DNA from: Sulfurisphaera javensis
Lineage (GTDB): Archaea > Thermoproteota > Thermoprotei_A > Sulfolobales > Sulfolobaceae
DNA: 24,000 nucleotides
Direction of reading: 5' to 3'
Assembly (NCBI RefSeq): GCF_041154675.1
Contig: NZ_AP031322.1
Coordinates: forward strand, 1,711,812-1,735,811
Positions 1 to 23,984 of the stretch are shown one piece after another. Positions within the stretch are counted from its first letter, which is position 1, and every line of letters begins with the position of its first letter. The position numbers and the translations under genes were made by a program. The notes under the pieces were generated by a model that had not been told where the DNA came from, did no database searches, and saw nothing but the letters and a program-made list of their open reading frames with translations.

Positions 1-1885
1 TAGGAACTGTTGGACCACTTCCTAAGGCTATAACTTCAGAGTGCCATTGTGCACCTCTTGGGGCTTCCTTAAGTCCAACTCCTATTGCAACATCTGTATT
101 TGTGTTTTTCTTATAAGTCCAGTCATACTGATTACCTCTACTGACTGCTGTTTGACCATTCTTTATATAATTCAAGGCAGAGAACCAAGCTATCCATGCA
201 CCTCCAGCATCTAAAGCACATGCATGAGCTCTAGCTCTCATCCTTTCTACAGCATTAGTAGCTACAGTTATACTTCCATTAGATAATTTAGATGACAACA
301 TCCAAGGCGATACATACTTTATCTCAATCTCACCTTGAAGTTCCGGAGGTAGCACAATTCTAGAAGAAATAGTTTGAGGTAAGTTCCATGTAACAGACTG
401 TTCATTGCTGTTATATTGAATTTCTATGCCAGCTGAAGAATATACCGCAGTATAAATAGGATCTGGAGCTTGTGGTTGTAAAACTTGTGCCCACATTACA
501 GCCTGAGGATCAGCCTCTACATTGAAGAAATAATTCATTACTGGCTTATGTCCAGCATATGGAACTAATCTTGGAGACATTGCCCAACTATATTTACCTT
601 GTGAATTACCAGAACCAAATGGATAACCTCTAGCCAAAGGCTGTGGTATAGTCCATTTTCTCCATGGATGATATGGGCTTACTGAATTGCCTATTGGATC
701 CTGAGATATGCCAGACACTTCTGATGGAACTTCTGAATTGTTAACCCAATCTTCATAAAATGAGGATTCAACAAATTCTCTCATTCCTAAATTAATATCA
801 ATTAAACTATTAGTTACCAATTCTGGTGGAGAAGTTGCACTCTTTTGGATCACTAATCCCGGTTTAACTACTCTAGCTCTTCCCCATGCCCCCATATTTT
901 CATAAGTAGCATCATATGGAGATACTGGAGTTGACGAAGGAGTTACACTAGGAGCCTCAGAAACATCGCTTTGCCCATAGCACAAGAAGTTACCTGGTCT
1001 ATTACCCATTTCAGCAAATCCTAGATTATTAAAGTTCTTATCATAATAGGCTTGTACACCAAATACATTACCATAATCATTTAGGAATAAGTTTAGGATC
1101 TCCCAAATTGCAACTTGCTTCTTTGCATACGCTGTACCATCAACTAATCTTTGTAAATATCTTTGTAAGTTTTCTACTGTTGCTGGAACTCCTATTCCTC
1201 CTGGAACCATTGAAATTGGATGTGGAATTCTTAGATAGTATAATACTTCTGCCTCATGCATAATTCTCCATACATAAGCACCTTCTAGCCATATAGCCCC
1301 AATTATTGGCACTAAACCATCCATAATATCTGCTACAGTTCTCATTGTAACACCGCTAAATTTCAACTCGCTAGGAGCACCATTTGGAAAAGCTTCAGAA
1401 TATTCTAATACTTTGCTTATTGGAGTCTGCTGTGCTAACTGATAAATCTCTGGAGGATAATAGCCAGCTATCTTAAAGAATAATGAACTCCAATCTGGTC
1501 CTCCTAATGCTGTTAGATGTACTGTTGCATCATAAACCATAGCGGCATCATTAGCTAACATAATTGTCTCTAAACCTAATGGTGGAGGAGCATAACCACC
1601 CATAGCCATTTCTTGTGCAATTCTCTCTATAAACTGATGATGTTCTCCACATATTCCGCATTCTCTTGATGCTAGCATTATAACATCTGGTGCTGGCTTG
1701 TTTCTTAAGAAAATCTCAAACCCTCTAAACATTCCAGCTCCAGCATAAGCCTCAGTAGCCCTAACTTGATTTTCACCTTCTATATTTACTGTTACTTGAA
1801 TTCCTAGTTCTGGCTTTATTCTTACTATAGGTTCTATTACAACTGGTTTTGTCCAATCATATTTAAACAAATAGGAAGAAGCCAT
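1..1885 (-). CDS. [NiFe]-hydrogenase large subunit, hydrogenase A (partial; C-terminus lies beyond the window start)
   Basis: ATG at 1883-1885, 1 nt after the small-subunit stop. The frame stays open to the window edge. Hand translation gives MASSYLFKYDWTKPVVIEPIVRIKPELGIQVTVNIEGENQV...GMFRGFEIFLRNKPAPDVIMLASRECGICGEHH (L1 motif RxCGxCxxxH), RIPHPISMVPGGIG (about 1180-1240) and KEAPRGAQWHSEV (about 30-70). More than 628 codons are visible. Confidence 0.9.
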   Translation of the reverse strand, partial: MASSYLFKYDWTKPVVIEPIVRIKPELGIQVTVNIEGENQVRATEAYAGAGMFRGFEIFLRNKPAPDVIMLASRECGICGEHHQFIERIAQEMAMGGYAPPPLGLETIMLANDAAMVYDATVHLTALGGPDWSSLFFKIAGYYPPEIYQLAQQTPISKVLEYSEAFPNGAPSELKFSGVTMRTVADIMDGLVPIIGAIWLEGAYVWRIMHEAEVLYYLRIPHPISMVPGGIGVPATVENLQRYLQRLVDGTAYAKKQVAIWEILNLFLNDYGNVFGVQAYYDKNFNNLGFAEMGNRPGNFLCYGQSDVSEAPSVTPSSTPVSPYDATYENMGAWGRARVVKPGLVIQKSATSPPELVTNSLIDINLGMREFVESSFYEDWVNNSEVPSEVSGISQDPIGNSVSPYHPWRKWTIPQPLARGYPFGSGNSQGKYSWAMSPRLVPYAGHKPVMNYFFNVEADPQAVMWAQVLQPQAPDPIYTAVYSSAGIEIQYNSNEQSVTWNLPQTISSRIVLPPELQGEIEIKYVSPWMLSSKLSNGSITVATNAVERMRARAHACALDAGGAWIAWFSALNYIKNGQTAVSRGNQYDWTYKKNTNTDVAIGVGLKEAPRGAQWHSEVIALGSGPTVP

Positions 1886-1886
1886 T

Positions 1887-3236
1887 TTAACTCACCCCCT
1901 TAGCTTTGGGAATTACGGGTTTACCTCTTCTTCTAGATAAGAAATACGAACCAACACCTACAACTATTCCAGCACCCACAGCTGCTGCTAATAACGTTGT
2001 TGAAGGTAATGTTGGTGCATTCGGAGGAGCATAGAATGGTTCATATAAATCTGGAAATCCTGGAGCAGTACAAGCTATACATACTCCCCCTCTCGTACAT
2101 CCCCCAACTCCTCCAACCCAGCCTAGACGCGGTGCTGGACTATTTGCTTCTGTTCCTTTACATCCTAAACTATAAGTGCATTGCGGATCTCCGAAGTTTT
2201 TAGCAAAAATTCCTTGAGCGAAAAATCCAGCTCTGGGACAGTTCTGATGAGTCTCATTTCCATAAAAGAATTTTGGTCTATTAAATATATCTAAGTAAGT
2301 AGAAGGGGCAGGAGCTAATCCTCTCGCATATAATACTCCGGCTACTAATGTTCTCATAATCCAATCTCCAGCTGGTGGATCAGCAGCTATAGCAACAATT
2401 GGCTGTCCTAATTTACTTAACCAATGATAACTTGGTCCAGGGTAAGCAGTATTATAAGGAGAGTTTGTAACAGAGTATATATCCTCATCAATTACTTGCT
2501 CTCCTCTGAAATAACCTAGATCTTTTTCATATACCTCATGGATGTAAGCAGGAAAACCTAGAATTCCTCTGTAAGGATCATCTAACATTCCCATCACATA
2601 TGTAGGAGATCTGTAACCTAAACCGTTTGTAGTTGCAGGAATTCCACCATAGGTTGCACAAGCACCAGTAGCGTAAACTAATGCAGCTTTTTTCATTAAG
2701 TTAAACACGAACTCATCGCATAGCAATACATGTCCAGATGGAGTTCTCCCAGCAGAACACCAGAAAGAACCAGATGGCTTCTCGTAATATAAGCCAAACT
2801 CATCAAACATTGTACCTTCAACAACTAATACATAAGGATCAAAAACACCAGCTAATGCAGCTTCCATAGTTGGATATGCCATATCGTCTTGTGGCATTAA
2901 AATTGGATGGTACACTAGATTTATGTTTCCTAGGTTTGTTATTGATGGAGCCCTTAAGGTTATCGGTTGTAAATTAAATGTGACTTGTGTCACTACGTCT
3001 TCAACAGCAGGATTCATTGCATCTATGAAAGCTATTGTATTTCCTCCACACCATCCGTTTCCTGTCCAGATTATGTTTATTGGATCTGATAGAGCGTCAT
3101 TAGCCATGTTAAATAAGTCCTTCCATGTTAGTCCCTTTTCTATCATCCATGTTGTAAGACCAGTAATCCCAGCTAATTTCATGAAATCTCTTCTACTAAT
3201 CCCTATCTTAACTTGTTTTGGCTTCGGTTCCTTCAC
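1887..3236 (-). CDS. [NiFe]-hydrogenase small subunit, hydrogenase A, with twin-arginine (Tat) signal and C-terminal transmembrane anchor
   Basis: GTG start preceded by AGGGGAT (SD-like). N-terminal SRRDFMKLAG Tat motif. Small-subunit motifs IIWTGNGWCGGNT, ATGACATYGG, HQNCPR, CTYSLGCKG and CTRGGVCIAC. Hydrophobic C-terminal stretch LLAAAVGAGIVVGVGSYFL followed by RRRGK. Lies directly upstream of the large subunit. Confidence 0.88.
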   Translation of the reverse strand: MKEPKPKQVKIGISRRDFMKLAGITGLTTWMIEKGLTWKDLFNMANDALSDPINIIWTGNGWCGGNTIAFIDAMNPAVEDVVTQVTFNLQPITLRAPSITNLGNINLVYHPILMPQDDMAYPTMEAALAGVFDPYVLVVEGTMFDEFGLYYEKPSGSFWCSAGRTPSGHVLLCDEFVFNLMKKAALVYATGACATYGGIPATTNGLGYRSPTYVMGMLDDPYRGILGFPAYIHEVYEKDLGYFRGEQVIDEDIYSVTNSPYNTAYPGPSYHWLSKLGQPIVAIAADPPAGDWIMRTLVAGVLYARGLAPAPSTYLDIFNRPKFFYGNETHQNCPRAGFFAQGIFAKNFGDPQCTYSLGCKGTEANSPAPRLGWVGGVGGCTRGGVCIACTAPGFPDLYEPFYAPPNAPTLPSTTLLAAAVGAGIVVGVGSYFLSRRRGKPVIPKAKGVS

Positions 3237-7662: not shown

Positions 7663-8598
7663 GTGACTTTAAAAACTCTGATTTTACTCTTTATCATTAC
7701 GGTATCTTCCTTTACTATCTGTGCTGTTACAAATCAAGTTAATCATTCAGTTATTATAATTGGAAAGAAAAATCTAACTATTTCCGGGCTAAATATAGTA
7801 AATGGTAATATAACAATTATTAACTCAAGTAATATAGTAATAGAAAATAATATGATATATAACAGTATCTATTTTGGCATATTCGTGTATAATTCTACTA
7901 ATATTACGATAGAGCATAATGTGATATCTAATTCTTATTATGATGGAATATCTATAAGAAAATCAAGTAGTGTAATTATAAAATATAACATTATATCAAA
8001 TGATACAAATGGTAATGGAATATCTATATGGGATAATAGTAAAAATGTAATTATTAGTAATAATCTTCTATCTAATGATGATTACGGAATTTTTATACTT
8101 ATGAGTTCTATTGTTAATATATATAATAATACTCTCTTTAAGATATATTATTATGGAATTTATCTTTATCAAGTTAGTGATATAAAAGTGTTGAATAATT
8201 CCATTTCTTTCTCTGACGTTGGAATTGAAACTGAATACGGAAATATAATCCTTATCCTTTCAAATATAATTAAATATGATCTAGTTGGCGTTTATATAGG
8301 AGATGGTTTAGAAAACTTTAGCTTGATAAATAATATAATTCAAAACTCTAGGTTTTTTGGCATTTTAATTAAATATTATCCTGAAGAATTTGAATATGAA
8401 GAGAATAGTTTTCTTAATAATACAGCTAATCTTTTTTATGAGTATAATAGTACTTTACCTAAACAACAAGTTATAGGAGCAGTTCCTCCAACTACTACAT
8501 CAGAAGAAATAAACAGGACTAATTATCTTTATTATTTTTTAGTTATAGTTCCAGTATCTCTCATCATAGCATATCTACTGAGGAGGAGAAGAAAGTAA
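7663..8598 (+). CDS. Secreted, membrane-anchored right-handed parallel beta-helix repeat protein (NosD/PbH1-like), probably heavily N-glycosylated
   Basis: N-terminal hydrophobic signal. Repeated ~22-aa units of the type NxxIxxNxI (IENNMIYNS, IEHNVISNS, IKYNIISND, ISNNLLSND, LNNSISFSD, INNIIQNS). About 13 N-x-S/T sequons. Ser/Thr-rich linker PPTTTSEE, then a C-terminal TM helix plus RRRRK. Confidence 0.7.
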   Translation: MTLKTLILLFIITVSSFTICAVTNQVNHSVIIIGKKNLTISGLNIVNGNITIINSSNIVIENNMIYNSIYFGIFVYNSTNITIEHNVISNSYYDGISIRKSSSVIIKYNIISNDTNGNGISIWDNSKNVIISNNLLSNDDYGIFILMSSIVNIYNNTLFKIYYYGIYLYQVSDIKVLNNSISFSDVGIETEYGNIILILSNIIKYDLVGVYIGDGLENFSLINNIIQNSRFFGILIKYYPEEFEYEENSFLNNTANLFYEYNSTLPKQQVIGAVPPTTTSEEINRTNYLYYFLVIVPVSLIIAYLLRRRRK

Positions 8599-8808
8599 TT
8601 CCCTCATTTCTTTTTCATATTTAATCATCTCAAGGTATTCTTTCTCACTAATTTTACTTACAATCATACCATAGCTTACTACTACATAATCTCCTTCCTT
8701 TATGTCATCCTCATTATTTATAACTGGTTCTACTATACCATTTCCATAATCAACAAATGCAATCATTCCCTCAATTTGTACAACTTTCGCAGGTAAACTT
8801 ATGCACAT
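8575..8808 (-). CDS. hypC: Hydrogenase maturation chaperone HypC/HupF family
   Basis: 77 aa. N-terminal MCISLPAKVVQIEG carries the essential Cys2, and the beta-barrel-like core GDYVVVSYG is present. Confidence 0.85.
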   Translation of the reverse strand: MCISLPAKVVQIEGMIAFVDYGNGIVEPVINNEDDIKEGDYVVVSYGMIVSKISEKEYLEMIKYEKEMRELLSSPPQ

Positions 8809-8851: not shown

Positions 8852-10018
8852 ATGAGTTTATATGATTTAGAGATTATTGACCTTGATGTCTTCGTTAAAG
8901 AGGGAAAAGTAGTTAAAGCAAAATGTTCTGGTAATAAAATTAGAGGATTTGAGAAGTCTTTTATAGGAAAGGAAGCTAAAATATTTTATGAAATTTTACC
9001 TAGAGTTTTAGCAACGTGTAGTCAATCCCACTTATATGTATATCTACAACCTCATATGAATACTCCAATAACTGAAATACTTATGACCCTCGAAATAGTT
9101 GATAGCCATTTAAAGCATCCCTATGCCTATTGGTTTCCTCATTTAATAAAAGATGAGCAGTTCTCTTTTCCATCCGGTGATAAATTTAAAAGAGTTAGTT
9201 TAATTTCAAGAAAGATAAAAGAATTAATGGAAAAGATAGGAGGAAGATGGCCTCATATTGACTATATAAAAGAAAATAAAGAGATAAGATTAAGAAAAGA
9301 TGATATAAAAGATATTACAAGTTTCATAGAGAATGAATTATTGGGAATGAGTATTGAAGATTTTTTAAGCGTAAAAAACATAGAGGATTTTTCTGGCGAT
9401 ATGAAGTTATTGATTGAAAAAGGAATTGAAGCATTAGACTGGAATACTGGTCTTAGAGATCATTTAGTCGTAGGATATCCATTTTCTGGTAATTTTGATT
9501 ATAATAAAATAGAGGATAAAGGTATTGAAGTACTCTATGATGGTAAAAAAGTAGAAGTAGGGCCTTTGGCTCAAGCATTAACTTTTGATCAACTAGTTAA
9601 AAATTATTTTAATAAATATGGACCTTCTCCTCTTTTAAGAGAAATATCTAGAGTGAAAGTCCTTGCAAAATTATTAAATAATATTAGAGATACTGAGTTA
9701 AAAAGTGAGAAATTCGAACCTCAAGACGGACATTTTATTTCATTTGCTGAATCAATAAGAGGGTCACTAATTCATGATTACATAATAAAAGATGGTAAGA
9801 TTTTATCGTATAAAATTATTCAACCAACAACATTTATAGCATCACCTAATGGTGCTTTAGAAAAATCAGTGGTAGGATTACATATTAAAAATCCTAAAGA
9901 TCCAGTTGAATTAGCATTAACTGTTTCTTCATTGGATACATGCTTCGTAACAAGAGTTAAAGTATTTGATGATAATAATAATCTATTAACAACAAAAAGA
10001 ATTGGAGGTTTTTGCTAA
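8852..10018 (+). CDS. [NiFe]-hydrogenase large-subunit-like protein lacking half of the active-site ligands (candidate HupK/HoxV-type maturation scaffold)
   Basis: 388 aa. [31 protein letters not shown] aligns to RGxE..L.GR...RxCGxCxxxH with the first Cys replaced by Leu. GGRWPH and [27 protein letters not shown] align to GGQWPH and APRGALGHWIVIKGGKILNYQIVTPTQ of the 13279..14808 large subunit. C-terminal [11 protein letters not shown] replaces DPCxxCxxH (second Cys to Thr, His to Lys). The N-terminal RxEGH motif is absent. Confidence 0.75.
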
Positions 10019-13278: not shown

Positions 13279-14808
13279 CTAAATAAGCTTTAGCATGTGC
13301 ACATTACATACCATACAAGCATCATGAGACCTAACTATATGATAAACCTCAATTGGATTATCTACATTAGAAACTTCAGTACCTATTAAAGCTAAAGGTA
13401 AATGACTCTTATTACCTAAAGGATCCTCTGGACCCATGTTAATTTGAGTAGGAGTCACAATTTGATAATTTAAGATCTTACCACCTTTAATTACTATCCA
13501 ATGACCTAATGCACCTCTTGGAGCTTCAACTAACCCATATCCTTTTCCTTCAATAACATCGTTCGGTTTCTTATAAGTAGGCTTACCGAACTTAAAATTA
13601 TTTAACTCATTAATCATAAGTTCATTATAAATTATTATTCTTATTATCCTGGCAATTATTCTTGAAAGTACACTTGGACCAATCTTATCGACCATATCAA
13701 AGACTATAGGATTTTTTGAAATAGTTAACATTGCTAATGCGCCAACTTCTGGTGCCAATAACTTACCATCATATTTATATCTAAAGCACTTAGTCAATGA
13801 ATATTTTCTTTTATCATCTGTTAAGTTGGGATTTGTCTCACCTTGAAAAGGATGTAAACCAATATTATCTCCTAAAGTATATGTGTAATATGAAGAATTA
13901 ACGAATTCTAGTATATTCTCTTGATTAAATTCCTTAAATTCCTTCTCTTTTACAAAGAAAATACCAGGTTTAAAATATTTCTTCCTTGGAACTCCTACAT
14001 ATTCTTCTGATGGTAAATGACCATAACTGAGGAAAATTCCAGAACCATATCCCAATTTATGCCAATTAGCTTCTAATCCAAATTCGATTATTTTTGATAA
14101 GTCTCCTTGTTTATAATCTTCAGCCCATTGTAATAAGTCTTTATAACTTTTAACGGTGCTCATAAATTGCTCTACTGGTCCTCCTAAGATAGTTTTTTCT
14201 AAATAATTTTGTTTAATATTTATCAATATTGATATTGCTTTATTTATCTCATTAGGTAAAGGATCTGATGTGACCCCTCCAGGAATTATAGCTGAACCAT
14301 GAGGCCATTGACCTCCAAAAATAGCATAAACTTCAGTATACTTTTTTGACCATCTAAAACATTCTTTGTATGATGAACCATTAATAGGGGCCCATCTCTT
14401 TAAAGCTTCATCAAAAATCGCATAATCTTGGTATTTTCTGTTCACAACATCAATTAAAAACATAAAATAAGTATGCCTTAAATCATTTTGACAACTTTCA
14501 GCCATACTCAATACATTTCTTATCCTTACAGCATTTTCTGGGACTTCAGCATTATAAATCATATCTAATGCTGAGGCTGATGCATATAAATGAGAGGCTC
14601 CACATATACCACAGACTCTTGGGGTTATAACTAAAGCGTCTAAAGGATTTTTACCTTTAAGAATTATTTCTATACCTCTAAATAATCTTGAGATTATTTT
14701 AGCATCAACAACTTTATTCTTTTCAAACTTTACCTCAACATCTAAATCTCCTTCAACTCTATTAAATGGAGAAATAATTTTATTACTCAAGCCACTCCAC
14801 CTTTTCAT
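13279..14808 (-). CDS. [NiFe]-hydrogenase large subunit, hydrogenase B
   Basis: 509 aa. Motifs NRVEGDLDV, FRGIEIILKGK...PRVCGICGASH (L1), GGQWPHGSAIIPGG and EAPRGALGHW. C-terminal HDACMVCNVH (L2 variant with DAC instead of DPC) is followed by only MLKLI. An alternative TTG start at 14790 follows GGTGGAG. Confidence 0.92.
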   Translation of the reverse strand: MKRWSGLSNKIISPFNRVEGDLDVEVKFEKNKVVDAKIISRLFRGIEIILKGKNPLDALVITPRVCGICGASHLYASASALDMIYNAEVPENAVRIRNVLSMAESCQNDLRHTYFMFLIDVVNRKYQDYAIFDEALKRWAPINGSSYKECFRWSKKYTEVYAIFGGQWPHGSAIIPGGVTSDPLPNEINKAISILINIKQNYLEKTILGGPVEQFMSTVKSYKDLLQWAEDYKQGDLSKIIEFGLEANWHKLGYGSGIFLSYGHLPSEEYVGVPRKKYFKPGIFFVKEKEFKEFNQENILEFVNSSYYTYTLGDNIGLHPFQGETNPNLTDDKRKYSLTKCFRYKYDGKLLAPEVGALAMLTISKNPIVFDMVDKIGPSVLSRIIARIIRIIIYNELMINELNNFKFGKPTYKKPNDVIEGKGYGLVEAPRGALGHWIVIKGGKILNYQIVTPTQINMGPEDPLGNKSHLPLALIGTEVSNVDNPIEVYHIVRSHDACMVCNVHMLKLI

Positions 14809-15757
14809 CTTTCTTGTACAAAGGTTTCACTAAGAAATTAGGCGCAGAAGCTCTAGCTATAGCTGAGTAAGTAGTATAAGCACCTCTACTCACTCCTAAG
14901 GGTAACCTCTTCGGTAAACCACTTCTGTTTTTTTCAGTTACGAAAAAGTTAAATGTAGGGAAATCAAACTCTGTACACCCAAAACATGGAGTACCAACTC
15001 TAGTCTTACTACTCTGATTATTCCAGAGAATTATATTACATGGACTTTTAGTGAATGAACCCCTACAACCTAAGTCAAAATATAAACATCCTTCTCTATG
15101 TCCGAACTCTTTTAAAGATATTTTATATGAGAAGTATAAACTCCTTGGACAACCAAATTGTGTAGTTGTACTATAAATTATTTTTAATCTTTGGTACTCA
15201 TCTAAATCCTCTTCAGATAAGCTATCTGTCAATATTTTAGATAATGTTGTAGTAATCCACTCTGGATGAGCTGGACATCCAGGAATATTTATTACTGGAA
15301 AATTCTTTCTAGATCTGTAATCTTTCCCTAAAAATCCTCCTTTTTCTTTTTTATGAAATTATAAACCAGTAGATTCTGTTGGATTTGGCTCAGAAGCCGG
15401 AACACCACCAAAACTTGCACAATCTCCAACAGCTACAACATAATTTGCTACTTTCGAAATCTCATAAACCCAGTCCTTCATAGGCTTTCCAGCAAAAATA
15501 TTAAACTTTCCAGTACCATTTGGACCTAAAACTACAGTACCTTCAAATATAAATACGTCTAACTGAATTTTCTCTTTAATAATTTGTTGCAAAATTTCTC
15601 TTACTTTATCACCAGTTTCTAAAGATAATGATGGATGCCATAATAACTTTGCATTATACATTTCGAAGAACTCTAATACATCTGGATTTTCTGCATTAAG
15701 AAATGAAAGTGTGTTACCACCACATGCTCCTCCTTGAAGCCATAAAATTGTTCTCAT
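14783..15757 (-). pseudogene. [NiFe]-hydrogenase small subunit, hydrogenase B (no Tat signal), interrupted by one in-frame TAA at 15359-15361
   Basis: ORF fragments 15359..15757 and 14783..15232 share one frame. Translation across the gap reads ...NPTESTGL*FHKKEKGGFLGKDYRSRKNFPVINIPGCPAHPEWITTTLSKIL.... The N-terminal part has WLQGGACGGNT and VGDCASFGG. The C-terminal part has GCPR, CLYFDLGCRG, SPCN and TPCFGCTEFDFP. Confidence 0.85.
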
Positions 15758-17475: not shown

Positions 17476-17742
17476 ATGGTGAGTAAAGTGGGAAAACTTG
17501 TATGTTTAATATGTGAACATGAAGAGGAAGTACCTAAACATTGTGGAGTTGAAATGGATTATATTCTAAAAGGAAATTTTAGAAAAATAGAGTATTTAAA
17601 ATGTAAGATCTGTGGAGTAGAAAGGGAAGTCCCTAGGCATTGTGGTGTTCCTATGCTCTATATTGACGAAGATTATTTCCCTGTAAGTAAGTTAACTAAA
17701 TCAGAAATAGAGGAGATGAAAAAGCTTTATTCAGGTGAGTGA
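17476..17742 (+). CDS. Small Cys/His-rich protein with two tandem CxxC-x9-HCG-x2-M modules (putative metal-binding hydrogenase accessory protein)
   Basis: The ATG directly abuts the hypE stop, and the stop lies 1 nt before the hypC ATG. Internal duplication: VCLICEHEEEVPKHCGVEMDYI and KCKICGVEREVPRHCGVPMLYI. Confidence 0.6.
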   Translation: MVSKVGKLVCLICEHEEEVPKHCGVEMDYILKGNFRKIEYLKCKICGVEREVPRHCGVPMLYIDEDYFPVSKLTKSEIEEMKKLYSGE

Positions 17743-18022
17743 AATGTGTGTAGCCTATCCTGGGAAAGTAATTGAAATACATGGTGAATTTGCAAAAGTA
17801 GATTTCGGTGCGGGAACAATTAGAGATAATATACTCATAAGTCTAGTTAATGTTAAAGTTGGTGATTATGTTCTAGTTCATGCTGGATATGCTATTCAAG
17901 TAGTGGATGAAGATGAAGCAAGAAAGACTATTGAGATGTGGGAGGAGATGACTAAAGAATTAGATGAGGAACAGAAGAAAAAAGATTTATATGAAGCTAT
18001 AGGTAGTGGTGCAAATGAGTGA
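17735..18022 (+). CDS. hypC: Hydrogenase maturation chaperone HypC
   Basis: The true start is most likely the ATG at 17744, giving MCVAYPGKVIEI with the essential Cys2. GGTGAG SD lies just upstream. Conserved core GDYVLVHAGYAI. Confidence 0.9.
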   Translation: MSEMCVAYPGKVIEIHGEFAKVDFGAGTIRDNILISLVNVKVGDYVLVHAGYAIQVVDEDEARKTIEMWEEMTKELDEEQKKKDLYEAIGSGANE

Positions 18023-19145
18023 GAGACTACCACAAATTTTAAAATATTATAGAAATCCGACACTTGCCAAAAGCATAACAGAAAAAATTAACGAATTAGC
18101 AAAGAAAATTGAGGAAAATATATCAATTATGCACGTTTGTGGTTCACACGAATGGACCATAACACATTACGGTATTAGAGCATTATTGCCAGATAATGTT
18201 CAAGTAAGAGCAGGACCGGGATGTCCAGTATGTATAACTCCAGCAAAAGATATTGATGATGCAGTAAAGTTAGCATTAGACGGAATTGTTGTGATGACAT
18301 ATGGAGATATGAGCAGATCTAAAGGAACTAAAATGAGTTTACAAGATGCAAAAGCTTTAGGTGCTGACGTTAGAGTAGTTTATGGTGTACAAGATGCTGT
18401 ACAAATGGCAAGAAAAGAACCAAATAAAGATTTTGTATTCTTTGCTGTAGGAATGGATACTACAGCACCAGCAACTGCTTATGAAATACTCTCTGGCGTT
18501 CCACCTAATTTAAGCTTCTTGGTATCTTATAGATATACTCCATCAATACAAGGTTCTGTGATGGAATCTAACGTTTTAGGAATTGACGCTTTTATCTCCG
18601 CTGGCCATTCAGCTACAATTACTGGAATGAAACCGTATTACGAATACTTCTTAAGAACAAAAAAACCGGTAGTATTTTCAGGCTTTGAACCACTAGATAT
18701 ATTGCTTTCTGTTTATATGTTACTAAAGCAAATTTATGAGAATAAACCTAAACTTGAAAACGAATATACAAGGGCTGTAACATGGGAAGGAAATGTAAAA
18801 GCACAAAATGCAATGGAAAAAGTGTTTGAACTTGAAGACGGTTATGTAAGAGGAGTAGCTGTATTTCCAAAAGCTGGATTTAGGCTTAAAGATGAGTTTA
18901 AACATGCAGATACAAGGGAGAAATATGGCTTAAAGAAAGGGATTTCGACAGAAGATGAATATGTTACCGGGGCAAGATGCGGAGAAGTTGTCATGGGACT
19001 TATAGATCCGCCAGAATGTCCATTATATATGACTGTTTGTAAACCAGATGATCCTAAAGGAGCACCTATGGTATCTCAAGAAGGTACATGTTGGATTTGG
19101 GCACATCACAAAATAACTAACCTTGTGCCTAAGTGTAAGAGGTGA
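18006..19145 (+). CDS. hypD: Hydrogenase maturation protein HypD
   Basis: Motifs CGSHEW, GPGCPVCITP and GMDTTAP (GFETT variant), plus the C-terminal Fe-S motif CGEVVMG..PPECPLYMTVCKPDDPKGAPMVSQEGTC. Likely start is the ATG at 18015. Overlaps hypC. Confidence 0.95.
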   Translation: MVQMSERLPQILKYYRNPTLAKSITEKINELAKKIEENISIMHVCGSHEWTITHYGIRALLPDNVQVRAGPGCPVCITPAKDIDDAVKLALDGIVVMTYGDMSRSKGTKMSLQDAKALGADVRVVYGVQDAVQMARKEPNKDFVFFAVGMDTTAPATAYEILSGVPPNLSFLVSYRYTPSIQGSVMESNVLGIDAFISAGHSATITGMKPYYEYFLRTKKPVVFSGFEPLDILLSVYMLLKQIYENKPKLENEYTRAVTWEGNVKAQNAMEKVFELEDGYVRGVAVFPKAGFRLKDEFKHADTREKYGLKKGISTEDEYVTGARCGEVVMGLIDPPECPLYMTVCKPDDPKGAPMVSQEGTCWIWAHHKITNLVPKCKR

Positions 19146-19873
19146 CAAAAATAGTCTACATGATTGGTAATACATATTGTAAATTATGCCAAACAAATGA
19201 ACAACAATTAAAGGAAGAGCTTGTTAAAACTGTAAAAGCATTTTATTATAAAGGATTAGTAACAAATGCTGGTGGAAATCAGAGTGCTAGATTACCCGGA
19301 AGTAACAAAGTTTGGCTAACTCCTTCTGGCTATCCCAGAATGAGTTTGTCTCCAGAAGATTTAATAGCAGTTGATCTTGAAGGAAATGTTATAGAAGGAG
19401 ATTTAAAACCCTCTATTGAAGTTTATGCTCATCTAGAAGTTTATAAGAGAAGACCAGATGTAAATGCAGTAATTCACGCACATGTACCTTATGTAATGGG
19501 AGCAACAATATCTGGATTTTTGGAAATAACCCATGGAGAAGCGGCAGCAATATTAGGGGAAGTAAAGATTATCCCATACTATCACCCAGGGACTAAGGAG
19601 TTAGCTAAAGCTGTAGGCGAAGCATTTCAGGGTACAGGAATGAAGGTACCCAGAGTAGTAATAACATTAAACCACGGTGCGTTTTCAGCTGGAGCATGTA
19701 TTCATGAGGCTAGAGCTTTTATGGAAATTTTAGATGAGTGGGCTAGGTTTAATATTGCAGCTAAGGCGTTAGGAGGAATAAAACATAAATTAACGTTAAT
19801 CGACTTAAGAAAACCAGGAGCAGGGTACATTAGGGCGGTAAAATTTGGAGGAAGAGCAGGTAAAGTGTCTTGA
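19142..19873 (+). CDS. Class II aldolase/adducin-domain protein (FucA/MtnB-like), translationally coupled to hypD
   Basis: GGNQSARLPGSNKVWLTPSGYPRMSLSPEDLIAVDLEGNVIEGDLKPSIEVYAHLEVYKRRPDVNAVIHAHVPYVMG matches the class II aldolase pattern (GN.S.R..ITPSG...PS.E...H..IY..RPD..AV.H.H). The GTG at 19142 overlaps the hypD TGA. An alternative ATG is at 19160. Confidence 0.8.
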   Translation: MTKIVYMIGNTYCKLCQTNEQQLKEELVKTVKAFYYKGLVTNAGGNQSARLPGSNKVWLTPSGYPRMSLSPEDLIAVDLEGNVIEGDLKPSIEVYAHLEVYKRRPDVNAVIHAHVPYVMGATISGFLEITHGEAAAILGEVKIIPYYHPGTKELAKAVGEAFQGTGMKVPRVVITLNHGAFSAGACIHEARAFMEILDEWARFNIAAKALGGIKHKLTLIDLRKPGAGYIRAVKFGGRAGKVS

Positions 19874-20150: not shown

Positions 20151-20424
20151 ATTATCAAAAAACTCAAGTGATAATATAATTAAGCTTCAAGCACTTCTTA
20201 GATGCGTAGAGGAGTTAGCTATATATAAGTACAAAATTGATGATTCTATGGAAAATTATCAGAAAATAACAATAAATTTCATTAAAAATGATAAGGAATT
20301 ATATGATTTATATTCTATTGTTCTCGATCTAATATTTTACTATTTATTGGGAGGAGAAAATATTAATGTTAGTGAAATAGAGGAAAAAATAAATGAGAAG
20401 ATCAATCAGATAAAAGAGATTTAA
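20113..20424 (+). CDS. Hypothetical helical protein, last ORF of the hyp operon
   Basis: 103-aa ORF whose ATG overlaps the previous ORF by 38 nt. I recognise no family motif. Its 3' end overlaps the convergent HypC-like gene by 23 nt. Confidence 0.35.
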   Translation: MNSHVYLAKHLLELSKNSSDNIIKLQALLRCVEELAIYKYKIDDSMENYQKITINFIKNDKELYDLYSIVLDLIFYYLLGGENINVSEIEEKINEKINQIKEI

Positions 20425-20632
20425 TCTTATCTTTCAAATCTTCTTCTATCTCATTAGGATTTAGAACTTTGATTGCATATCCAGCATGAACTAAAACATA
20501 ATCACCAACTTTAGCATTAACTAGAGAGATCTTAACCCCTCTTATTATTCCGTTAAAATCAACTTTAGCCTCATCACCTTTAATTTCTATTATACGTCCA
20601 ACATATGCCATATCATAAGGATCATATTCCAT
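20402..20632 (-). CDS. HypC-family paralogue lacking the N-terminal cysteine
   Basis: MEYDPYDMAYVGRIIEIKGDEAKVDFNGIIRGVKISLVNAKVGDYVLVHAGYAIKVL aligns to the 17744 HypC (MCVAYPGKVIEIHGEFAKVDFGAGTIRDNILISLVNVKVGDYVLVHAGYAIQVV). It has neither Cys2 nor any other Cys, and it carries a 7-aa N-terminal extension. Lies downstream of the hydrogenase C endopeptidase. Confidence 0.75.
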   Translation of the reverse strand: MEYDPYDMAYVGRIIEIKGDEAKVDFNGIIRGVKISLVNAKVGDYVLVHAGYAIKVLNPNEIEEDLKDKIKSLLSD

Positions 20633-20637
20633 ACTTT

Positions 20638-21126
20638 CTATTTATCTTCCAAAATATTTAGACATTTCTCTTTTACCAGTTTTTCAATATCTGAAACCTC
20701 TAAATTTATTTTTACACCAAATTTCTCCATAAAAAGTTTAAATATAGGAAATAATTTTACCATTCTATTTATACATTCTTCCGATAATCTAAAGTTAATA
20801 TCTACAATATATGGCTTACAAGCAACTACATAAAATTTTTTATCCTCATATAGTTTTAAGACTAGATTTAATCCTAAATCATGTAATGAAAAATCATAAT
20901 CTGAACTCCTTTTCACCTCATATATCCCATACTCTGAATCAATATTAGCTATATCTAAAAGGACTACTATATCATATTTATTTATATCAATATTAAGTAA
21001 ATTTGATGTATCAAGATCTATTACCTCAGCTCCTAGTGTGTTATCTTTAATAATTTCAGCTAAACAAGAACCAAAACCATCATCTCCCATCAACCTATTT
21101 CCAACACCTACAATAGCCACTTTCAT
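20638..21126 (-). CDS. Hydrogenase maturation endopeptidase (HybD/HoxM/HycI family)
   Basis: 162 aa. [24 protein letters not shown] (GxGNxxxxDDGxG) and the later SLHDLG His motif. Overlaps the stop of the large subunit by 4 nt. Confidence 0.9.
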
Positions 21127-22646
21127 AATAATTTCTCTAATATATGGTCTTTAGTAATTATATGAACTGCGCATGCTGAACAAGGATCAAAACTTCTAAT
21201 AATTCTTAAAGCATCTAAGCCACTAACCTTTTCAACCTCTTCAGTAACCTTTTGTCCTATTATGCTCTCTTCTACTGGGCCACCATTACTACTAAAGTTC
21301 CTATCCGTGGGAGTAATTATTTGATATCGAGATATAATCCCATCCTTTTGAAGTATCCAATGAGCATTTCCACCTCTAGGAGCATCATGAGCCCCAACAG
21401 CTAAATTAGTCCCTTTACCTTTATATTGATTAATTTCCTTACTCTCCTCTAAATTCATAATATAGTCGTAAAGTAAACCTACAGTAAACATTCTTGCAAA
21501 AAGCCTTTCTACTACATCATTGGCTATATAATCCCATTCATAGTTAAATGCCTTTGGCTTTCCCCTTTGTAATCGATATGAGTAAAGCCTGGCAATATCA
21601 CCAGTAGTAGGCATAAACTCCTCTGAAGAGAAAACTTGTTTGACAGTAAATAAATAATTACCAGACAATTGCTTTAATTTAGTCTCTTTATTCCATGGAT
21701 GATGCAAATCAACCTTATTTCCTAAAGGATCTTCAGATACTGTTTGCTCCCAATTGTCATAGGCAGTTCCTTCAGTGTAAACTCTCACACCCAAAAGAAT
21801 ATCAATTAAATTTCTACTTAGAAGCTCTCCTTTACGTATTAACGCTGGAGGAATAAATCTCTTTATACCCCAATTATTCATATCTTCATAATTAGCATTA
21901 TAATCATGTGAATCTAAGAGTCCGTAAGTTATGAAATTTGCACCTAGATCTTTATAAATATTTTTATAAAATTCTCTTAATTCCGCAGTTACATAGAATA
22001 ACTTTTCTATATCCTTCTCTATTTCTTTAAGTCCTTGCTTAATCTTTGTAATAACATCTTTATCCCTAATCTCAATACCTCCGACTTTTAAAGAAAGTGG
22101 TTGAGGATATCTTAACCATATTAATGTTGCTAAGTCCCTTAATTTCGTTGATATCTTTAGTGCCGTTTTGTAAATTTCCCCTTTGTAATATAAATTATCC
22201 ATTATGTCTGAAACTTTAGTATATCCATGAATATCACGATATATACTATAAGTATTCAAAGCTTTTTCAAATTGAGACGGAGTAAAAGATGCAACTATAG
22301 GTGAAGAGAAATCAATACCTTCAAATATAAACGCAACAGTCACATTATTATACATAATATCTGCTAAAGCATAGGCAACATTTCTTAAATCAATCACACC
22401 AGAAGAAGGGTAAATACCAGAAGCCATTTCTAAAGCTTCAATGGAAACTAAAGTATGAGTAGCACCACAAACACCACATATTTTCCCAGCAATATTAGGT
22501 GCTAAGTTCAGCTTCTTATTCTTTAAAAGTAACTCAAATCCTCTGAACATTGTTATTTTAACTTTGGCAAAAGTATAATATCCATTCTCTATCTTGGTTT
22601 CAATTCCTAAATGACCTTCAACTCTAGTAATTGGCTCTATCTTCAT
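21123..22646 (-). CDS. [NiFe]-hydrogenase large subunit, hydrogenase C
   Basis: 507 aa. Motifs [21 protein letters not shown]...[11 protein letters not shown] (L1) and [11 protein letters not shown]-terminal [10 protein letters not shown] is followed by a 12-aa tail, [12 protein letters not shown]. Confidence 0.92.
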
Positions 22647-22648
22647 TG

Positions 22649-23191
22649 CTAACCACCAGAAGTTAAAGCATAGTAAATTGCTGCAATCATCATTTTATCC
22701 GAAGCTGGACAACCAGGCACTTCATAAACTCTTTTACCTAAAAATTCGCTTACTCCTACGTAACCTAATTCCCTTATAATTCCCCCATTTACAGCACAAG
22801 AACCTACAGCAACAATTGCCTTAGCTTTTTCAGCTAATTTTTTGATTAACTCATTACAAGTCATATCTCCAACATAACAAAGTCCATCTTTATCCTTTGG
22901 AATCGCTCCTTCTATCACTAGAACAAAATCTTTTTGTGAAAGAATTTCGTCTAAGTATTCCTTCCCACATTTCTCTTCACAAATGTTAGAGTAAAGTTTG
23001 AACGGAGAAGAATGAAAGAAAAGATTTTCCAAAGACTTACAGCCACTTTTCAGTATATTTACACTTTCACCAGAACATGATTGAGCCTCAATCCAAACTA
23101 TATTACTCTTTAATACTTTCTCTAACGCTTCACAATAATCCATAATAACTTTTTTACATAAAAAAATATATGTTTTTCTGAAGACTTTCAT
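22649..23191 (-). CDS. [NiFe]-hydrogenase small subunit, hydrogenase C; short form with only the proximal-cluster domain and no Tat signal
   Basis: Motifs [22 protein letters not shown] and EVPGCPAS. No medial or distal cluster region is present. The start is more likely the ATG at 23143 (MDYCEALEK), which has CATATATTTTTTTA about 25 nt upstream, giving about 164 aa. Confidence 0.85.
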
Positions 23192-23552
23192 CTAGGTATC
23201 AGATAAGCATATATTGTATTTAAAAAGAACAAAGAAAAGAAAAATAATTAATGATTAGAGATGATAATAAATATAAACATAGAAAAATTTCAGCACTTTA
23301 CTAACTCTTTTCTCTATAAATAGAATAACAGAAATCATTAGCAGAATAAATGAAACTGTAAGAAGAAATAGAAACAACATATACAGAGAAGTAATGTTAG
23401 TATTAAGACTTCTCTTTTATTTAGTTAACATTAAATAAATCGTTTTTAACCTACATGTATGGATCTTATTTATTTGATCTTATGAAGAGATAAACTTATT
23501 TTGCGTCAATAACTAGGATAAAAATATAATCTGAAACATTACATTTCTCTCC

Positions 23553-23984
23553 ATGAGTGGTTATAAAGTACAAATAATGAAGAAAACTGCCTTACAGTTT
23601 TTGAAAGATGCAAAGAGAGACTTAGAGGAAGGAGGTTATAATAATGCAATATTTTATACTGAGGAAGCAGTTCAATTATACATAAAGGCTGTGCTATTTG
23701 AGCTTTTTGCTACTGAAATTAGATCTCATGACTTACGTTCTCTACTTTCTTCTCTTTCCTTAAGCTTAGAGGAAAGTGGATATACAAGATTTTCCCAAGA
23801 AATTAAGGATTTGACACGAATTTACAGAAACGCTTTAATAGACCTTGAGGATGCATATATTGATAGTAGATATGGAGGGATAGAATATAGTAAAGAACAA
23901 GTGGAAGAGTTAATTGAAATTGCCGAAAAGATTATTAATAAACTGGAGGAAATAAGCAAAAATGTCAAGCTGGGTAAAGAATAA
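23553..23984 (+). CDS. HEPN-domain protein (HEPN/MNT toxin-antitoxin-type)
   Basis: 143-aa helical protein with FLKDAKRDLEEGGYNNAIFYTEEAVQLYIKAVL, RSHDLRSLL and EDAYIDSRYG, which is the HEPN (PF05168-like) pattern. A new ORF (ATG 23962, MSSWVKNKFKHLA...) overlaps its 3' end and runs off the window. Confidence 0.6.
   Translation: MSGYKVQIMKKTALQFLKDAKRDLEEGGYNNAIFYTEEAVQLYIKAVLFELFATEIRSHDLRSLLSSLSLSLEESGYTRFSQEIKDLTRIYRNALIDLEDAYIDSRYGGIEYSKEQVEELIEIAEKIINKLEEISKNVKLGKE

Follow-up and report, generated by a model that had tools for sequence, protein, structure and literature searches.

We analyzed a [NiFe]-hydrogenase operon located in a 24,000-nucleotide stretch of the Sulfurisphaera javensis genome (contig NZ_AP031322.1), the whole of which is referred to below as the window. 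S. javensis is described in its genome note as a thermoacidophilic, facultatively anaerobic crenarchaeon, and that note makes no mention of hydrogenases. The window is a hydrogenase island that contains SUL2-type genes, a gene for a 388 amino acid (aa) large-subunit-like protein, hypF, a group 2e hydrogenase pair, hypE, hypC, hypD and the operon of the enzyme that we term Hydrogenase C (Table 1). This operon codes, in order, for a small subunit, a large subunit, a maturation endopeptidase whose start overlaps the large-subunit stop codon, and a HypC-like protein that is devoid of cysteines. The large subunit contains exactly four cysteines, all of them Ni-Fe ligands, and its Ni-Fe site is complete. 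The last Ni-ligand motif is followed by a 12-residue tail that is presumed to be the substrate of the endopeptidase, with cleavage expected from the way in which [NiFe] large subunits are generally matured. As detailed below, Hydrogenase C is very likely orthologous to SUL1 (Hsu1), a [NiFe]-hydrogenase whose lineage is confined to the Sulfolobales.

The small subunit is unusually short. Its sole Pfam match is to PF01058 (Oxidored_q6), which covers residues 39-173 of the 180-aa open reading frame (ORF), and the Pfam scan did not find the C-terminal cluster domain PF14720. It spans positions 33-210 of the 365-position TIGR00391 hydA model of NCBIfam, the family profile spans approximately residues 12-171 of Escherichia coli HybO and then stops, and the protein terminates 19 residues past the Cys of the PGCPAS motif. 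Inspection of its sequence revealed no RRxF twin-arginine motif, and Hydrogenase C is predicted to be a cytosolic-type heterodimer without a signal peptide. Note that the conserved start is internal Met17 of the ORF (window position 23143, MDYC...), which yields a protein of 164 aa. The NCBI and Logan gene calls both place the start at this codon, every orthologous small subunit in the family alignment begins at the MDYC Met, and the orthologue of Sulfurisphaera strain S-194 has stop codons immediately upstream of it. The ORF reaches 23191, but this extension lacks conservation. The distance to the upstream HEPN gene is 361 bp from the ORF start and 409 bp from the conserved start. These results agree with the original prediction, which had proposed a small subunit with only a proximal cluster and no twin-arginine translocation (Tat) signal, a full-length 507-aa large subunit with canonical motifs and a 12-aa tail, the four-gene operon, and flanks of 361 bp of non-coding DNA plus a HEPN gene.

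Table 1. Features of the Hydrogenase C operon, its flanks and the remaining hydrogenase island. Positions are those of the window; residue numbers of the small subunit count from the conserved start.
Feature	Position	Strand	Description
Small-subunit ORF	22649..23191	(-)	180 aa
Small subunit (HsuS1 orthologue)	22649..23143	(-)	164 aa; flavodoxin-like N-terminal [NiFe] small-subunit domain only
C23-S-G-E26 proximal-cluster motif	23066..23077	(-)	Invariant Glu replaces second Cys of CxGC
Small-subunit ligand C116	22796..22798	(-)	Proximal cluster
Small-subunit ligand C145	22709..22711	(-)	Proximal cluster
Large subunit (HsuL1 orthologue)	21123..22646	(-)	507 aa; PF00374
Large-subunit RVEGH	22611..22625	(-)	Residues 8-12
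Large-subunit C57GVC60	22467..22478	(-)	Residues 57-60
Large-subunit DPCSACAVH	21162..21188	(-)	Residues 487-495
Large-subunit C-terminal tail	21126..21161	(-)	12 residues after last Ni-ligand motif
Hydrogenase maturation endopeptidase	20638..21126	(-)	162 aa; TIGR00072 71.5 bits, cut-off 47.45
HypC/HupF-family paralogue	20402..20632	(-)	76 aa; PF01455 65.9 bits; TIGR00074 above cut-off
Upstream non-coding region	23144..23552	.	A/T-rich TATA-like boxes ~25-30 nt upstream of both candidate starts; putative promoters, assigned by eye
HEPN gene	23553..23984	(+)	PF05168; forms a pair (L001 95..854) with a nucleotidyltransferase gene just beyond window
Hydrogenase A	1..3236	(-)	Large-subunit gene runs off window
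Hydrogenase A small subunit	1887..3236	(-)	449 aa, Tat signal, proximal motif C-G-G-N
HypC-like gene	8575..8808	(-)	Starts MCISLP
388-aa large-subunit-like protein	8852..10018	(+)	Without C-terminal DPCxxC
Group 2e small subunit	14783..15757	(-)	In-frame TAA at 15359..15361
88-aa protein	17476..17742	(+)	Between hypE and hypC
HypC	17735..18022
Class II aldolase/adducin-family gene	19142..19873	(+)	Directly after hypD

Assignment to SUL1 builds on the work of Leung et al. (2024; Nat Commun 15:3219, PMC11018855); statements about that study refer here to excerpts of its text, supplement, tree file and structural model. It describes two new [NiFe]-hydrogenase clades that occur only in Sulfolobales, SUL1 and SUL2, with SUL1 being a "lone pair" of genes whose truncated HsuS1 has just one [4Fe-4S] cluster and whose electron carrier is described as unclear. 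In the published tree SUL1 lies among groups 1 and 2 as a clade with 100% support and a long stem, and its tips include Acidianus brierleyi (DFR85_RS19415), the strict anaerobe Stygiolobus azoricus, Sulfurisphaera ohwakuensis (CP045484.1_1129) and Sulfurisphaera sp. (CP035730.1_1430). The contigs of five loci from our own collection (L003, L004, L005, L006 and L081) are also tips of this clade. The Hydrogenase C large subunit, which has 100% identity with the S. javensis protein at NCBI, has relatives with at least 51% identity only in the Sulfolobales, while the next best match does not exceed 33%; relatives above 50% come from Sulfurisphaera, Stygiolobus, several Acidianus and, as a fragment, one Saccharolobus. 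When calculated over the first 399 residues, the length printed in the published supplement, identity is 79% to the S. ohwakuensis member, 62% to that of Stygiolobus azoricus and 59% to A. brierleyi HsuL1 (CP029289.2_757). The latter protein is identified by its best hit, group 1l at 31.4%, which matches the figure given for HsuL1 in the text, where SUL1 is reported to share about 30% identity with the HydDB subgroups 1h and 1l. In addition, the S-194 locus (L081, CP035730.1) matches the window gene for gene. Membership in SUL1 appears secure because these identities, the synteny with S-194 and the published clade tips all agree. The finding is thus right but not new, since the lineage, its truncated subunit and the question of its acceptor were all published in 2024; the S. 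javensis copy is unreported, yet it is no new kind of enzyme.

We next considered whether the short small subunit is a property of the family or of this one gene. A search of 5.8 billion proteins recovered 25 clusters of small-subunit orthologues that are all at least 61% identical, and all of these are 162-176 aa in length except for one 129-aa fragment. An exhaustive profile search of 1.84 billion representatives gave only two clusters better than 1e-30, with the next match scoring 91 bits versus 290. Furthermore, the length and 59 invariant columns are common to Sulfurisphaera, Stygiolobus, Acidianus, Metallosphaera and Ca. Aramenus. Because all orthologue clusters are short and the family is isolated, the truncation is ancestral to this narrow family, and the gene is not a broken one; a pseudogene reading of it was rejected on the same grounds, the orthologues being equally short.

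Analysis of conserved residues indicates that the small subunit offers one predicted cluster site, formed by Cys23, Cys116, Cys145 and the invariant Glu26. The family alignment contains seven invariant cysteines (C4, C23, C35, C89, C96, C116 and C145). Among these, C23, C116 and C145 align with three of the four proximal-cluster ligands of HybO, where the second Cys of the HybO CTGC motif is a Glu in this family. C89 aligns with a conserved non-ligand Cys of HybO, while C4, C35 and C96 are specific to SUL1. In the nearest small subunits outside of SUL1 the residue at the Glu26 position is C, N, D or E. The geometry of the site was taken from atom distances in the published apo AlphaFold-Multimer model of A. 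brierleyi Hsu1 (SUL1.pdb, chain A), in which the sulfur atoms of the three ligands are 5.3-6.4 Å apart and the carboxylate oxygens of Glu26 are 4.9-6.5 Å from each of them, so that Glu26 is modeled at the fourth corner of a cubane pocket. In the same model C4-C35 and C88-C95 (C89-C96 in S. javensis) are each separated by 2.04 Å, a spacing that indicates two modeled disulfides, and these lie 22-24 Å and 11.6-14.2 Å, respectively, from the cluster ligands. Intracellular disulfides are common in Crenarchaeota. The seven invariant cysteines would thus be accounted for by three ligands and two disulfides, leaving none for a hidden second cluster; a second metal site built from the extra cysteines was rejected since the modeled disulfides are distant from the ligands. 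Separately, the invariant LFFHSSP segment (residues 38-47 of the published A. brierleyi HsuS1 model) has a predicted local distance difference test (pLDDT) score of ~48-68, compared to ~85-95 elsewhere in the subunit.

The closest characterized large subunits are those of group 1h (the actinobacterial-type Hhy/AH enzymes) and group 1l, with the closest solved relative being group 1h 5AA5_C at an E value of 2.6e-54. There is a parallel at the second proximal-Cys position, which is a carboxylate in both lineages, Asp in group 1h (HofK C-D-G-D) and Glu in SUL1. The group 1h proximal cluster is documented as Cys3Asp, having three Cys ligands and one Asp, which is needed for O2 insensitivity. There are also differences. 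For example, group 1h and 1l small subunits are ~350 aa long with three clusters, whereas Hydrogenase C has one cluster and no C-terminal domain, and their large subunits are ~570-600 aa with a C-G-I-C motif in place of C-G-V-C. More specifically, the CxxC position is Val in the SUL1 large subunit and Ile in group 1h as well as in the SUL2 and 2e enzymes of the window. A further difference is that the group 1h and 1l enzymes use trace H2 under aerobic conditions, whereas SUL1 has its peak under anaerobic ones and is found in the strict anaerobe Stygiolobus azoricus. With its C-terminal cluster domain missing and Glu instead of Asp at the ligand position, Hydrogenase C falls outside of group 1h.

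The S. javensis pair resembles that of A. brierleyi in that it stands alone, is restricted to Sulfolobales, has a truncated small subunit with one cluster and carries no Tat signal. It differs, together with the S-194 pair, in having its own endopeptidase and Cys-less HypC paralogue downstream and no Sdh-like genes upstream. The endopeptidase gene of S-194 is at the equivalent position. When aligned to the HypC of the window, the HypC-like protein has Asp in place of the essential N-terminal Cys; its S-194 orthologue is likewise Cys-less and retains the N-terminus MEYDPYD(M/I)A. Tail length varies among orthologous large subunits, with 12 residues after the last His in the window, S-194, Stygiolobus CP850M and Acd1 (L081, L008 and L004) and four residues (VFKP, LFRP) in Sulfolobaceae RB850M (L002 10488..11975) and Metallosphaera yellowstonensis (L003 10458..11957). 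At these last two loci no member of the protease family was seen in ORF clustering.

To look for an electron-transfer partner we compared the window with 11 further SUL1 loci (L002, L003, L004, L006, L007, L008, L081, L083, L084, L085 and L087); a scan of genome contigs that did not include complete genomes yielded seven SUL1 loci. In most genomes the pair is inside of a hydrogenase/hyp island. In M. yellowstonensis and Stygiolobus CP850M, genes for HypA and an Mrp/MinD-type ATPase lie directly upstream on the same strand, and in L007 HypA and Mrp-type genes are present ~1.7 kb upstream on the opposite strand; these neighbors serve nickel insertion, not electron transfer. In Stygiolobus caldivivus (L084) the pair is located between hypE-D and hypF, in Acidianus HS-5 (L087) and A. 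copahuensis (L006) it adjoins hyp genes and a group 1g cluster, and in A. manzaensis (L083) it is directly downstream of the sreABCDE sulfur-reductase operon on the same strand. In RB850M, in Acd1 and in a JGI metagenome contig that is syntenic with Acd1 (L085) the pair is found amid unrelated genes. The S-194 pair has a divergent NicO nickel permease gene upstream and the protease and HypC-like genes downstream. Thus, no electron-transfer partner is conserved beside the pair in the 11 further loci, where only the pair itself is kept; its recurring linkage is with genes for maturation and with the anaerobic island of group 1g and sulfur-reductase genes. The earlier view that the acceptor is not obvious from the locus is borne out, as is the suspicion of a poorly characterized lineage; it had also been asked whether the small subunit might be shorter than its orthologues or the enzyme might belong to a known group with partner genes just outside of the window, whereas the orthologues are equally short and the enzyme groups firmly with SUL1, which has no conserved partner genes.

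The region immediately beyond the window was also addressed. The Logan contig extends ~400 bp past the window and reveals that the HEPN gene is followed by its nucleotidyltransferase partner, forming a HEPN/nucleotidyltransferase (HEPN/MNT) pair of the toxin-antitoxin type. The position upstream of the small subunit is occupied by this pair in S. javensis versus NicO in S-194, and a partner just beyond the window was rejected on the basis that the syntenic S-194 locus has NicO there. The intergenic DNA upstream of the small subunit differs between the two strains; the window contains no nicO remnant, and a blastn comparison with the L081 intergenic region matches only the start of the coding region.

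One explanation for the lone pair is that Hydrogenase C docks onto a membrane quinone-reducing module (SdhB2C2D2-like, sulfur reductase or Isp) and feeds the respiratory chain. This was suggested by Leung et al. for A. brierleyi, where sdhB2C2D2 is upstream of the SUL1 pair (PMC11018855), and the position of the A. manzaensis pair behind sreABCDE is congruent with it, as is the presence of a group 1g/isp cluster within 10 kb of the pair at four other loci. However, AlphaFold gave no confident or stable interface in the same study, the A. brierleyi enzyme fractionates with the cytosol, and the neighbors of the pair vary among genomes. Moreover, neither the window nor any of the 11 further loci, among them that of A. 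copahuensis, a close relative of A. brierleyi, contains Sdh-like genes, so that a conserved Sdh-like partner was rejected (0/11). We thus regard docking onto a quinone-reducing module as improbable.

As to mechanism, H2 is probably oxidized at the Ni-Fe site and electrons probably move to the single small-subunit cluster, which would then pass them directly to an acceptor whose gene lies at another place in the genome. The preferred reading, which we hold tentatively, is that a soluble carrier of low potential, such as ferredoxin, accepts these electrons. In standard enzymes the C-terminal small-subunit domain buries the relay; with this domain absent the cluster would have to lie close to the protein surface. 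Maturation of the large subunit would involve the Hyp proteins encoded nearby together with its dedicated endopeptidase and the Cys-less HypC-like chaperone. The soluble carrier would deliver reductant to the cytoplasm, with the main group 1g enzyme being oriented outward. An anaerobic cytoplasmic role of this kind is suggested by several observations on SUL1, including that A. brierleyi Hsu1 is enriched in the cytosol, has its peak abundance during anaerobic H2/S0 autotrophy and makes up only ~3-5% of hydrogenase protein, as well as the occurrence of SUL1 in Stygiolobus azoricus (PMC11018855) and the Val of the CGVC motif. Taken further, SUL1 could be a self-sufficient two-subunit hydrogenase whose surface-near Cys3Glu cluster needs no further subunit for electron exchange with ferredoxin or another soluble carrier, a more speculative proposal that we would not yet call probable.

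Several points weigh against the SUL1 explanation and its preferred acceptor. Transfer of electrons from H2 to ferredoxin is thermodynamically marginal unless H2 is high. The cluster could be either a Glu-ligated [4Fe-4S] or a [3Fe-4S] cluster, and its geometry is that of an apo model of an orthologue. The assignment to the clade leans on identity gaps and on a published tree that holds close orthologues, and the physiology suggested for the S. javensis enzyme is entirely transferred from A. brierleyi proteomics.

Hydrogenase C could alternatively be an H2 sensor, that is a regulatory hydrogenase that binds H2 and signals to a regulator, a role in which no electron-transfer partner would be needed. 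Like the regulatory hydrogenases of groups 2b and 2c (HupUV/HoxBC), it is predicted to be cytosolic and lacks both a Tat signal and an operon-encoded respiratory partner, and its A. brierleyi counterpart is of low abundance (3-5% of hydrogenase protein; PMC11018855). The lack of a conserved partner in the 11 further loci and the location inside of hydrogenase/hyp islands in most genomes also fit such a role. In contrast, known 2b/2c sensors have three clusters, linkage to a histidine kinase and neither a large-subunit tail nor a protease, whereas Hydrogenase C has one cluster, a 12-aa tail and an adjacent TIGR00072 protease, with no regulator conserved beside the pair and no kinase in any locus examined. 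These features place it outside of groups 2b and 2c. Sensors also carry Ile at the CxxC position, where the C-G-V-C motif of Hydrogenase C has Val as in standard enzymes. We know of no archaeal H2-sensing pathway. A sensor role is consequently given only a slim chance, and the variant in which the minimal SUL1 dimer would be the first archaeal H2 sensor is also considered less likely.

A third explanation assigns Hydrogenase C to the type of group 3 or 4, with diaphorase or membrane subunits encoded elsewhere. Single-cluster small subunits are typical of both groups, with HoxY of group 3d, HycG/EchC/MbhJ of group 4 and NuoB all being PF01058 proteins of similar size with one proximal [4Fe-4S] site, and the small subunit does have weak matches to NuoB, FrhG and VhuG. 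However, these subunits always belong to co-encoded multisubunit complexes, whereas no diaphorase, Fe-S or membrane modules are adjacent to the pair in the 12 loci. The small subunit also matches group 1/2 models at 1e-19 to 1e-20 as compared to 1e-4 to 1e-5 for group 3/4 models and NuoB, the large subunit matches group 1h at 2.6e-54 versus about 1e-15 to 1e-19 for group 3, and the clade branches with groups 1 and 2 in the published tree (PMC11018855). The small subunit is thus short but of the group 1/2 sequence type, and membership in group 3 or 4 is highly improbable. Finally, that the locus is a non-functional remnant in which the short small-subunit gene has decayed or been mis-annotated, as might be imagined from the nonsense codon in the group 2e small subunit of the same window and from a 354-aa large-subunit fragment in Saccharolobus shibatae, is scarcely credible when length and the 59 invariant columns are conserved across five genera, the catalytic motifs are all intact and both A. 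brierleyi subunits are seen by proteomics (PMC11018855).

These results indicate that a group 1/2-type [NiFe]-hydrogenase can lose its entire medial and distal cluster domain and yet persist across an archaeal order. The window contributes a clean syntenic Sulfurisphaera example with a protease and a Cys-less HypC paralogue but no new lineage. Relative to the account of SUL1 in the excerpts of Leung et al. (2024) used here, the additions are the Glu ligand position with its group 1h parallel, the two predicted disulfides, the observation that the Sdh-like neighbors proposed as a partner for A. brierleyi are not conserved, and the Sulfurisphaera-specific module of protease and Cys-less HypC. 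Mutagenesis and spectroscopy have a concrete target in the conserved Cys3Glu site, and a minimal soluble thermostable [NiFe] dimer could interest enzyme engineers. If the self-sufficient reading were true, SUL1 would be the smallest free-standing uptake [NiFe]-hydrogenase and would provide the low-potential reductant that Sulfolobales grown on H2/S0 use in the cytoplasm to fix CO2. An unrelated lone pair occurs in a bacterial metagenome contig (L086 1065..3001), where a 182-aa small subunit with a CTGC motif that ends soon after PGCPAS accompanies a 466-aa HoxH-type large subunit, flanked by genes for a rubrerythrin and an extracytoplasmic function (ECF) sigma factor. Minimal heterodimers may have more than one origin.

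Additional analysis of the island revealed several features outside of the Hydrogenase C operon. The large subunit of Hydrogenase A begins MASSYLFKYDWTKPVVIEPIVRIKPELGIQ, a start that nearly matches an S. ohwakuensis protein in the published dataset whose best HydDB match is T. roseum group 1h at ~30%, as is given for SUL2 in the excerpts of PMC11018855, and Hydrogenase A is predicted from its sequence to be of the SUL2 type. The in-frame TAA of the group 2e small subunit falls where the 325-aa S-194 orthologue has Gln133 and leaves ORFs of 132 and 149 aa, with the sequence otherwise being 85% identical to S-194 in the same frame; this codon is either a nonsense mutation that creates a pseudogene or a sequencing error. 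The 388-aa protein groups with [NiFe] large subunits in BLAST searches, and its gene adjoins that of the HypC-like protein that starts with MCISLP. This pair resembles, and may be, a HupK/HoxV-type scaffold with HupF/HoxL. The 88-aa protein has a duplicated C-x-I-C-x(6,7)-VP-[KR]-HCGV motif with no Pfam match, and a gene of similar size is at the same position in S-194 (84 aa) and Stygiolobus caldivivus (83 aa); this small protein could bind metal and act in maturation. Lastly, the class II aldolase/adducin-family gene is directly after hypD not only in the window but also in L081 (13265..13978) and L084 (3536..4264), an adjacency that is thus found in three species of two genera (two Sulfurisphaera and one Stygiolobus), and it is followed by two small ORFs, one of which has a weak FeS_assembly_P match.

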